Source: Escherichia phage Lw1
Direction: 5' to 3' (one strand)
Sequence record: KC801932
Length of the DNA stretch: 64,000 nucleotides
The notes under the pieces were generated by a model that did not search any database, had not been told where the DNA came from, and saw only the letters and a program-made list of their open reading frames with translations. Shown one piece after another: positions 18,279-46,609 of the stretch (its first letter is position 1; each line of letters begins with the position of its first letter). A program made the position numbers and the translations under genes.

Positions 18279-18523
18279 TGAAAGAATTTATCGAAGCAAT
18301 CAAAAGCGGCGATCTGGTGGAGGCTAAGAAGCAATTCTACTCCATCATGGAAGACCGTACCGAAGCCCTTCGCCAAGAAATGCGCGTTGAAATTGCAGAA
18401 GCAGTCCGAATCGAAGGTGAAACCGACGAAGACGACAGCGACGATGATAAAGACGACAAAGACGGCGAAAAAGGCGAAAAAGACAAAAAGCCGTCTGAAA
18501 AAGACGACAAAGCCGACGAATAA
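18275..18523 (+). CDS. 67: prohead core protein gp67-like (acidic)
   Basis: 82 aa; highly acidic D/E/K-rich C-terminus; position between portal and gp68/gp21 as in T4. Confidence 0.6.
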   Translation: MMKEFIEAIKSGDLVEAKKQFYSIMEDRTEALRQEMRVEIAEAVRIEGETDEDDSDDDKDDKDGEKGEKDKKPSEKDDKADE

Positions 18524-18535
18524 GAGGTGTAAATA

Positions 18536-43512: not shown

Positions 43513-43517
43513 GAGGA

Positions 43518-43538
43518 AGGGGCGAAAGCCCCTTTTTT
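43518..43538 (+). terminator. rho-independent terminator
   Basis: AGGGGC-gaaa-GCCCCT followed by TTTTTT. Confidence 0.75.
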
Positions 43539-43542
43539 CATT

Positions 43543-44430
43543 ATGTATAGTATTGAGAAAGATTATGGCGGTGGTTGCTGGGTAGTAGATCATGTTACTC
43601 TTGTAAAAGAAAAACTTCCTGATAACTGGGAATTTTTATCTACATCCACGAAAAATCGTATTGCTGATACTGTTTACCGTACAGCAATGGAACGACATAA
43701 AAATGATATTCATCGACGAAAAGCACAGATGTTGAAATCTCGTAATATCGATGTTAGTCATTTGGATATAATAGGAACTCAACCGATGACGCTTTCAAGC
43801 ATCACCAACGCTTACGTGAATGGCGAAACCCGCGAGGAAGAAAAAATGATGTGGGAACCTGGATTATCAGAACCGGATAATGGATATAAAAAGCAAATGC
43901 AATCTCTTGATTTTAATGAGAAAATCAATAATTTGCTTAATTATTGCGCATCGAGCGTTTCGTCGTGGGAATATCATGGCCCGATTGATATAGCAGGTTT
44001 TACTGCTCGTGGTGTTGAGGTTTTTAACTTCGAAAAACTGATGAATGGTATCATGTCTTCTGACTATATCGTTTCTGTGAATGTCCCTGTTGTTGCGACA
44101 TCCCGTTTTTCATCTCCTTGTAACGTTGTTACGGATAAACTTAATATTGTTGCTGTCGATAATAGCGATGTTAATATTAGCGATGGTGATAGAATCGGAA
44201 GCATCCTGGTTGCCCTAGAACTGACTTGCGAAGACGGCTATACTTGTAGTATGTTTGTTGTTTCTTGTGTTGATGATGCCGTGAACTCAGTGTTTACTAA
44301 TTTCAGCAAGAAATTAAATGCTCTGCATATTGAAAAATTTATACACAAATGTAAAAAGAACGTGATGGGGAATTATGATCCGTCATTAACATACACGAAA
44401 ATTGATGAAAACATGGTGGACTTATGCTGA
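43543..44430 (+). CDS. hypothetical protein
   Basis: 295 aa ORF; no recognised family. Confidence 0.5.
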   Translation: MYSIEKDYGGGCWVVDHVTLVKEKLPDNWEFLSTSTKNRIADTVYRTAMERHKNDIHRRKAQMLKSRNIDVSHLDIIGTQPMTLSSITNAYVNGETREEEKMMWEPGLSEPDNGYKKQMQSLDFNEKINNLLNYCASSVSSWEYHGPIDIAGFTARGVEVFNFEKLMNGIMSSDYIVSVNVPVVATSRFSSPCNVVTDKLNIVAVDNSDVNISDGDRIGSILVALELTCEDGYTCSMFVVSCVDDAVNSVFTNFSKKLNALHIEKFIHKCKKNVMGNYDPSLTYTKIDENMVDLC

Positions 44431-44714
44431 TTAATACGGCGCAATGTAAAGCCCTGAACTTTCTGATTCATGAACTGGTTGAATACGATATTCCTTTTGA
44501 GTTCGTCGATCCGATAAACTCAGAATACAACTATACGTTTTTCTGGTCGTCTGGTGATGACAGTATCGACGCGGTGGATAAAATCGTTAGAAGTGCTCTA
44601 CGTAATAATAGCATGGTGATGATCGGAAGCGTAAACGCTAACACCTGGAACGGTGCTGATGCGTATTTCATCGGCTATCGGACTATGTTTGATACGGTAG
44701 TAGAAATATGTTGA
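44424..44714 (+). CDS. hypothetical protein
   Basis: 96 aa ORF overlapping the preceding stop. Confidence 0.45.
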   Translation: MLINTAQCKALNFLIHELVEYDIPFEFVDPINSEYNYTFFWSSGDDSIDAVDKIVRSALRNNSMVMIGSVNANTWNGADAYFIGYRTMFDTVVEIC

Positions 44715-44739
44715 CAGCGGATTCATGAACGCGTACTAT
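44711..44739 (+). promoter_or_regulatory. sigma70-like promoter TTGACA-N17-TACTAT followed by a 5' hairpin
   Basis: Hexamers at 44711-44716 and 44734-44739; hairpin GCCCCTGTAG...CTATAGGGGC at 44740-44767 directly downstream. Confidence 0.5.
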
Positions 44740-44773
44740 GCCCCTGTAGACAACAAACTATAGGGGCTAAATC

Positions 44774-45010
44774 ATGAAAATCAAAAATACTGCTACTGAA
44801 AATCTTTGCAACGAAATCGCGGTGACTTACTGGAAAGAAGGTCACGCAAAAGCAATGAAGGATTTTCAACACTGGAAAGAAGGTCACGCAAAAGCAATGA
44901 AGGATTTTCAACCGTGGTGTGATACCCAGAAGTTAGCCAAATGGGAATACATCGTAATCGTGGAACGGATCAAAGAACTGATCCTTGAGAAGAAAGGCAC
45001 TATAAAATGA
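44774..45010 (+). CDS. hypothetical small protein containing an in-frame 14-codon tandem duplication
   Basis: 78 aa; WKEGHAKAMKDFQH / WKEGHAKAMKDFQP encoded by the 42-bp tandem repeat. Confidence 0.45.
   Translation: MKIKNTATENLCNEIAVTYWKEGHAKAMKDFQHWKEGHAKAMKDFQPWCDTQKLAKWEYIVIVERIKELILEKKGTIK
44830..44913 (+). repeat. perfect-over-40-nt tandem duplication, period 42 bp, 2 copies
   Basis: ctggaaagaaggtcacgcaaaagcaatgaaggattttcaa at 44830-44869 and again at 44872-44911. Confidence 0.9.
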
Positions 45011-45068
45011 TTCAACTGAAATTAGACACCTATACGCTGAACAATCTGTTCCCAGAGGCAAAAGGCTG

Positions 45069-45560
45069 ATGAACTTTGACCGCATCTACAACATGGATGT
45101 GGTCAACGGTAAAGGAATCCGTGTAGTGTTGTTTGTCACTGGCTGCAATCATAAATGCGAAGGTTGCTACAACAAATCAACATGGAATCCCCGCAACGGT
45201 ACACCATACACCGAAGAGACTGAAAACGAGTTGATTAAACTCCTTTCAAATCCTTATGTGGACGGATTGACGCTTACAGGTGGCGATCCGTTTTACCGCA
45301 CCAATCATCCAACACTGTTAAACCTGCTCCAGCGCGTTCGTGCTGAGTTGCCGGATAAGAACGTATGGGTTTGGACAGGCTACACACTGGACGCCTTACA
45401 AAGCGATACAGAACGTTCTAAGCTACTTCCGTTTATTGATGTTCTTATCGACGGGAAGTATGAAAAAGATTTGCCGACTAAGAAACCGTTTCGCGGTTCT
45501 GATAATCAGCGATTGATTGAGTTTCAGAAAGATTCAATAGAAATTAAAAATATCGCTTGA
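45069..45560 (+). CDS. nrdG: anaerobic ribonucleotide reductase activating protein NrdG
   Basis: 163 aa; radical-SAM C-x3-C-x2-C (CNHKCEGC) and GLTLTGGDP motifs. Confidence 0.85.
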   Translation: MNFDRIYNMDVVNGKGIRVVLFVTGCNHKCEGCYNKSTWNPRNGTPYTEETENELIKLLSNPYVDGLTLTGGDPFYRTNHPTLLNLLQRVRAELPDKNVWVWTGYTLDALQSDTERSKLLPFIDVLIDGKYEKDLPTKKPFRGSDNQRLIEFQKDSIEIKNIA

Positions 45561-46582: not shown

Positions 46583-46609
46583 GGGGATGCTGAAAAGCAT
46601 CCCCTTTTT
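46583..46609 (+). terminator. rho-independent terminator
   Basis: GGGGATGC-tgaaaa-GCATCCCC followed by TTTTT. Confidence 0.75.

Follow-up and report, generated by a model that had tools for sequence, protein, structure and literature searches.

An in-frame 42-bp tandem duplication in a small gene of Escherichia phage Lw1

A short open reading frame of Escherichia phage Lw1 (sequence record KC801932) appears to contain the same 14 codons twice in succession, which raises the question of whether the second copy is genuine, how and when it arose, and what it does to the encoded protein and to the genes downstream. The locus was studied within a stretch of 64,000 nucleotides of the phage genome, referred to here as the window. 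Lw1 is a Pseudotevenvirus of the RB43 group; according to its genome paper, it is a pseudo-T-even phage found in a lysed insulin-production culture of E. coli BL21(DE3), and its genome was sequenced by 454 technology and assembled with Newbler 2.5.3 (GenBank KC801932.2). That paper makes no mention of a 42-bp duplication, and a literature search found no specific literature on in-frame duplications in phages. The following features define the locus.

44774..45010, plus strand: Lw1 gp254, 78 aa, a member of family PHROG 5072 and a predicted three-helix protein (ORF, profile match, AlphaFold)
44829..44870, plus strand: copy 1 of the 42-bp unit, covering positions 2-3 of codon 19, W20-Q32 and position 1 of the junction codon H33
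44871..44912, plus strand: copy 2 of the 42-bp unit, covering positions 2-3 of H33, W34-Q46 and position 1 of P47

Direct string comparison showed that positions 44829-44870 and 44871-44912 hold one and the same 42-bp sequence, ACTGGAAAGAAGGTCACGCAAAAGCAATGAAGGATTTTCAAC, repeated head-to-tail. TRF reported a single array at 44829-44912 (period 42, 2.0 copies, 100% matches, no indels, score 168), and this array was also recovered by a separate repeat scan. Both TRF and string comparison thus confirm the original prediction of a 42-bp in-frame tandem duplication spanning 14 codons of the 78-aa ORF at 44774-45010. The two 40-mers that it had placed at 44830-44869 and 44872-44911 do match each other; the unit nevertheless extends one base further on each side, such that the copies abut and the supposed 2-bp spacer disappears. 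The copies do match as claimed, and ‘near-perfect’ was too weak a description, as identity is 100% over 42 × 2 positions. In terms of reading frame, the unit runs from position 2 of codon 19 (T|AC) to position 1 of codon 33 or, with the second copy, of codon 47, generating a junction codon C+AC (CAC, H33) and a distal codon C+CG (CCG, P47). The His/Pro difference that had been noticed between the translated copies is therefore present in the protein, and it arises because the flanks complete the codons differently rather than because the copies have diverged. The extra copy is not assignable to either unit, and relatives show a 42-bp gap at this place. The second-best tandem array in the 64-kb window has a TRF score of 82, compared with 168 for the 42-bp repeat, no other exact direct repeat in the window exceeds 25 bp, and the number of perfect 42-bp tandem pairs expected by chance in 64 kb is about 3e-21.

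The product of the ORF is 100% identical to ‘hypothetical protein Lw1_gp254’, and among 5.8 billion protein clusters the exact 78-aa sequence has just one entry, Lw1_gp254; no independent assembly carrying it was found, and it is on record only from the Lw1 GenBank genome. gp254 matches PHROG 5072 over the full length of the family (E = 4.7e-31, 107.7 bits). The match is split into two stretches, the better of which pairs gp254 residues 33-76 with profile positions 20-63 of 64, as expected when part of a 64-position profile is present twice; profile positions ~20-33 indeed occur twice in gp254. Outside the duplicated columns gp254 is 76-95% identical to its phage homologues, and it differs from the Pseudotevenvirus and Slopekvirus members in being 78 aa long as opposed to 63-67 aa. 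Annotated phage homologues (RB16p248, RB43ORF270w and others) have 63-64 aa, and full-length homologues in protein clusters have 61-67 aa, bar one variant of 91 aa that also lacks the duplication. Between diverged alleles of the family dN/dS is 0.11-0.24, and gp254 is therefore a real protein-coding gene under purifying selection.

The family is narrow and clade-restricted: an HMMER profile search of 1.84 billion representatives returned three proteins and no domain fusions. Searches for a function in Pfam, NCBIfam and PADLOC gave nothing above threshold, as did comparison with the PDB both by sequence profile and by fold, and a fold search of BFVD returned solely uncharacterised phage proteins, some of them distant members found in T4-like Aeromonas phages. 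A match of the 78-aa protein to Pfam DUF446 (YqcC-like; 16.4 bits, E = 0.009) lies under the gathering threshold of 25 bits and was discarded as noise, the single-copy relatives giving no match to this family even at E <= 10. As a separate observation, in the 91-aa metagenome homologue the conserved C-terminal half, starting with AMKEFQKWCD, is preceded by a different and longer N-terminal half (MIFNKTNSRNLNYLRCELEANEIELFFCGATDPEH...), which suggests modular replacement of the N-terminal helices within PHROG 5072.

Downstream, gp254 is linked to nrdG through a very short reading frame.

45007..45069, plus strand: 20-codon micro-ORF linking the gp254 stop to the nrdG start, a remnant of an RB43ORF271w-like gene
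45069..45560, plus strand: nrdG, anaerobic ribonucleotide reductase activase (radical SAM), the downstream neighbour of gp254

The gp254 stop overlaps the start of the micro-ORF (ATGA, 45007-45010), and the micro-ORF stop overlaps the start of nrdG (TGATG, 45067-45071). Gene order upstream of nrdG is identical in RB16, IME-CF2, Miller, RB43, GuL6 and KP13MC5-1, and Lw1 shares with the PHROG 5072 loci of RB16 (RB16p248) and RB43 (RB43ORF270w) the arrangement of promoter, gene, ORF271w or its remnant, and nrdG. The DNA neighbourhood is ~86-89% identical to Pseudotevenvirus genomes (IME-CF2, Miller, CfP1, RB43, GuL6). An INPHARED-derived phage collection lacks Lw1 itself and offers at best ~88-89% identity over 20 kb. 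For the gp254 allele the nearest sequences are those of RB16-type phages (96.7%), whereas for the flanking 20 kb they are those of the IME-CF2/Miller/CfP1 group, a discordance that indicates local mosaicism.

The number of copies was then compared across relatives, comprising 172 phage records (119 matches inspected), 10 protein clusters and 5 IMG/VR contigs, and a single copy was found in all 119 inspected matches, in all ten clusters and in all five contigs. With a 331-nt query placed round the ORF, full-length matches among the 172 records span 288-289 bp, i.e. 331 minus 42 or 43, and partial matches are shortened by an equal amount. Among the best 60 of the 172 matches and 59 of 60 evenly sampled ones, the span equals the query length minus 41-45 bp; in the evenly sampled records this corresponds to 195 or 192 bp for the 237 bp of query where the whole ORF is matched, and to 187 or 182-183 bp for 229 or 224 bp where it is matched in part. 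The sole exception among the 60 sampled is a partial Yersinia phage match that begins past the junction. Base-level alignment with RB16, IME-CF2, Miller, RB43, GuL6 and Slopekvirus KP13MC5-1 gave a clean 42-column gap in sequences that are otherwise collinear.

The ten metagenome and genome protein clusters (49-91 aa) lack the repeat, and a codon-degenerate pattern for the junction, MKDFQxWKEGH (11 residues), had 0 matches in the metagenome, IMG/VR and GTDB genome collections. The control pattern for a single copy, MKDFQxWCD, retrieved five IMG/VR contigs, all with one copy. Two other results were set aside: an initial junction pattern with 20 specified bases matched three IMG/VR sequences that are unrelated and share the pattern alone, and a 50-nt junction-centred BLAST query reported as ‘96% covered’ proved to have its halves mapped in permuted order onto a single copy (two pieces within a 47-bp span), which is no sign of a duplication. 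Since one copy is present in all inspected relatives, the duplication is, as judged by these comparisons, derived and, in public data, private to Lw1. The check that the original prediction had proposed, one versus two copies in related genomes, thus returned two for Lw1 and one for every inspected relative, and the copy-number variation that it had anticipated is found as a difference between related phages.

We consider it probable, at roughly 80%, that a single spontaneous in-frame duplication of 42 bp (14 codons) occurred in the Lw1 lineage within a small conserved early gene, and that it is likely neutral. The two-copy allele would most likely be neutral or slightly deleterious and have been fixed by the bottleneck of isolation, rather than having been selected or programmed. 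A programmed variable repeat, that is, a contingency locus or VNTR whose copy number modulates the protein or the translation of nrdG, has in its favour that the array is tandem and in frame and precedes a gene linked to gp254 in translation. Such loci display several copy-number alleles among related strains; at gp254 only two states exist, the two-copy state is confined to a single genome, and neither three-copy nor partial arrays occur in the inspected matches of the 172 relatives or in metagenomes. Moreover, the unit is long and non-repetitive, and its DNA structure is not significant (z = 0.34). A programmed repeat is effectively refuted by this distribution.

The restriction of the two-copy allele to one record would also fit a finishing or assembly artefact, whereby an untrimmed end overlap was left when the circularly permuted Newbler contig was closed and re-oriented to start at rIIB, or the repeat was introduced in the version-2 revision. 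Copies that are 100% identical with zero microhomology at their junction are what an untrimmed overlap gives, the genome was in fact re-oriented, and the public record is its second version. Against this, an artefact would be in frame with a probability of only 1/3, yet the ORF is complete and the coupled starts downstream are intact, and a comparable repeat is found nowhere else in the 64-kb window. Furthermore, 454 reads, typically several hundred bases long, would reach across the 84 bp of the array, repeats of this sort are not a normal product of overlap-layout assembly, and a k-mer overlap of 42 would be untypical, all of which we count against an artefact. On balance we regard this explanation as unlikely.

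If the duplication arose in the phage, as we favour, its breakpoints bear on the mutational route. Streisinger-type slipped-strand mispairing gives rise to short tandem duplications and has been studied classically in the rII and lysozyme genes of T4. The gp254 repeat resembles these in being a head-to-tail duplication of a few tens of bases in a gene of a T4-type phage, with perfect copies and an in-frame survivor. Identical head-to-tail copies without intervening sequence, one hallmark of slipped mispairing, are present; however, the direct repeats of several base pairs at both ancestral endpoints by which such duplications are defined are missing in Lw1 (0, at most 1 bp). The base before the array is T whereas the last base of the unit is C, and the base after the array is C whereas the first base of the unit is A, such that the array comprises exactly 2.0 copies and junction microhomology is 0 bp as the sequence stands. 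Nor was a DNA secondary structure found that could have promoted the event, the fold of 44810-44930 being no better than that of shuffled sequences (z = 0.34).

The exact breakpoint hinges on whether the ancestral codon was CAG, AAG or CCG. In relatives the end of the unit reads CAA-CAG-TGG (RB16, GuL6 and three IMG/VR contigs) or CAA-AAG-TGG. From a CAG ancestor, crossover would have taken place on a single shared A, and a later A-to-C substitution would have produced the distal CCG (Gln to Pro); from an ancestor that was already CCG, the junction would have been blunt. Each route takes one duplication and one substitution, and the two are indistinguishable. A model based on a three-base TGG microhomology was rejected as less parsimonious because it requires a further substitution in each of two codons, CAG to CAC at the junction and CAG to CCG at the distal position. 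Given endpoint homology of 0-1 bp, classical slipped mispairing is unsupported, and the duplication most likely originated by a replication template switch or by illegitimate recombination, which may have occurred between sister or concatemeric copies. Of the two origins first suggested, slippage or recombination, slippage in its classical form is thus not evidenced, and a template switch or illegitimate recombination is the likelier.

A second length change lies close by. In RB43, GuL6 and KP13MC5-1 an ORF of 175-176 aa (RB43ORF271w; 176 aa in RB43) separates the gp254 homologue from nrdG, and in RB43ORF271w the 11-bp sequence CTGTTCCCAGA occurs as a direct repeat, at nt 40 and again at nt 508. 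An in-frame deletion of 468 bp between these CTGTTCCCAGA repeats gave exactly the micro-ORF that Lw1, RB16, IME-CF2 and Miller carry. Repeat-mediated recombination is evident at this deletion, unlike at the duplication 100 bp upstream. A private duplication thus adjoins a repeat-mediated deletion in the same 300-bp neighbourhood.

The original prediction had also called the event recent. Zero differences over 42 paired sites limit the divergence per lineage since the event to <3.6% (95%). The closest allele, of RB16 type, differs from the de-duplicated Lw1 gene by 3.3%; the bound set by copy identity is no tighter than this distance and dates the event weakly. A young age is better argued from the phylogenetic distribution than from the near-identity first invoked, and ‘recent’ holds only in a relative sense.

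Turning to the protein, AlphaFold models built from family alignments place helices at residues 6-22, 24-38 and 42-62 in the 64-aa form (pLDDT 85) and at 6-22, 24-45 and 51-72 in the 78-aa form of Lw1 (pLDDT 82), the confidence of the latter dropping to 65-70 over residues 41-60. The duplicated stretch, W20-H33, takes in the last part of helix 1, the Gly-His break and the greater part of helix 2. Most of the residues conserved in the N-terminal half (W20, G23, H24, M28, K29, F31, Q32) fall within this stretch, whose duplication doubles the most conserved N-terminal motif of PHROG 5072, WKEGHAKAMKDFQ. The modelling predicts that the 14 added residues would be accommodated as a longer helix 2, with the inserted columns lacking co-evolutionary support. 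The Matthews laboratory reportedly engineered tandem sequence repeats in the helices of T4 lysozyme, and duplicated helix segments are expected either to extend the helix or to loop out. The situation in gp254 is similar in that a segment of about a dozen helical residues is doubled in a small helical protein, and of the two expected outcomes AlphaFold predicts extension, of helix 2; it differs in that gp254 is a natural and unrelated protein with a structure that is predicted only.

As 42 is divisible by three, both the C-terminal helix and the overlapping stop/start chain are kept. An in-frame event would leave the C-terminal half and the chain of overlaps from gp254 through the micro-ORF to nrdG intact, and the mutation may thereby have been tolerable; a frame-shifting event would break both the C-terminal helix and the chain, which could plausibly explain why the observed variant is in frame.

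Whether the longer protein could have been favoured for its own sake was considered in two forms. According to the first, the lengthened helix and doubled motif alter an activity or a partner of gp254 and were selected on the insulin-producing E. coli BL21(DE3) host. The duplicated segment does hold the majority of the conserved residues of the N-terminal half, gp254 is under purifying selection, Lw1 comes from an unusual niche and displays host-dependent population behaviour, and proline at the distal junction codon (P47) is found in Lw1 alone among the aligned homologues. Set against these points, the duplication does not recur in other phages, coliphages of the genus included (inspected matches of the 172 related records), family, structure and fold searches linked no function, partner or phenotype to gp254, and neutral fixation at isolation would lead one to expect just one occurrence. 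We therefore hold selection on this host to be very unlikely. The second form, a selected gain or change of function in which the doubled WKEGHxKAMKDFQ and the longer helix 2 retarget gp254 as a possible host-takeover factor made beside the genes for anaerobic nucleotide reduction, seems to us more doubtful still; if it were true, a retargeted gp254 might help Lw1 to attack the BL21(DE3) production strain or play a part in the unusual population behaviour of the phage.

On the neutral reading that we prefer, the duplication is an ordinary kind of event, a private in-frame change in a small accessory early gene of a published phage genome. It provides an example of T4-type phages generating small in-frame length variants in accessory early genes, and a natural case of a small helical protein accommodating a duplicated helix segment. 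The two-copy allele also offers a simple PCR-length marker that tells Lw1 from all known relatives. It would pose a new biological question only if it had a phenotype.

The region preceding gp254 contains two further elements.

44711..44739, plus strand: sigma-70-type promoter-like sequence TTGACA-17-TACTAT, with hexamers conserved in relatives and a mostly variable spacer
44740..44767, plus strand: hairpin with a 10-bp stem and an 8-nt loop (GCCCCUGUAG...CUAUAGGGGC), the 3′ arm containing AGGGG (Shine-Dalgarno-like, for gp254)

The hairpin directly follows the promoter-like site and folds at -18 kcal/mol (z = -6.4). Its stem is invariant in seven phages, and covariation is absent for that reason. 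If transcription started ~7 nt past the -10 element, the RNA would have its 5′ end within the 5′ arm and is predicted to lack structure (-2.9 kcal/mol), whereas a transcript reading through from upstream is predicted to adopt a strong fold (-33 kcal/mol, z = -5.1) that buries the ribosome-binding site. The gene's own RNA, from its predicted start in that arm, would accordingly be open, and the ribosome-binding site of read-through transcripts would be masked. Translational masking is known for several T4 genes, which the predicted read-through fold at gp254 resembles. Within the promoter spacer (44720-44729), four positions (ATGA) are invariant across the seven phages, the spacer being otherwise variable; in the read-through fold of Lw1 this ATGA pairs with the start-codon region (UCAUGAA), a helix that is absent from the RNAalifold consensus. 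No Rfam family was found in 44400-45200.

Promoter/stem-loop cassettes of T4-like phages, termed PeSL, are said to have been treated by Arbiol et al. in 2010. In these cassettes an early promoter is directly preceded by the stem-loop, and copies of the cassette recur across the genome (PMC4122927, Comeau et al, 2014). Like them, the gp254 region brings together a near-consensus early promoter, a stem-loop and a start codon with its Shine-Dalgarno sequence, and it lies in a variable region where indels occur nearby. It differs in that its stem-loop is situated downstream of the -10 element and overlaps the Shine-Dalgarno sequence, and in that the stem-loop motif is unique in the 64-kb window; neither the position nor the repetition of a PeSL is thus found here. 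At a greater distance, GC-rich hairpins with T-runs at 43513-43538 and 46583-46604, terminator-like on both strands, flank the block of small early ORFs that includes gp254 and nrdG.

Two other groups of repeats were observed in the window. The second-strongest tandem array, at 18429-18525, consists of imperfect 21/30-bp repeats (TRF scores 63-82) and is rich in AAAGACGAC (Lys/Asp-type codons). Between 50958 and 51680 one exact direct repeat is 25 bp long (50958 and 51645) and another 20 bp (51351 and 51657), the two having a common core, CAGAAACAAACGC; this region is annotated as long tail fibre genes in relatives, and the repeats are probably internal repeats of a fibre protein.
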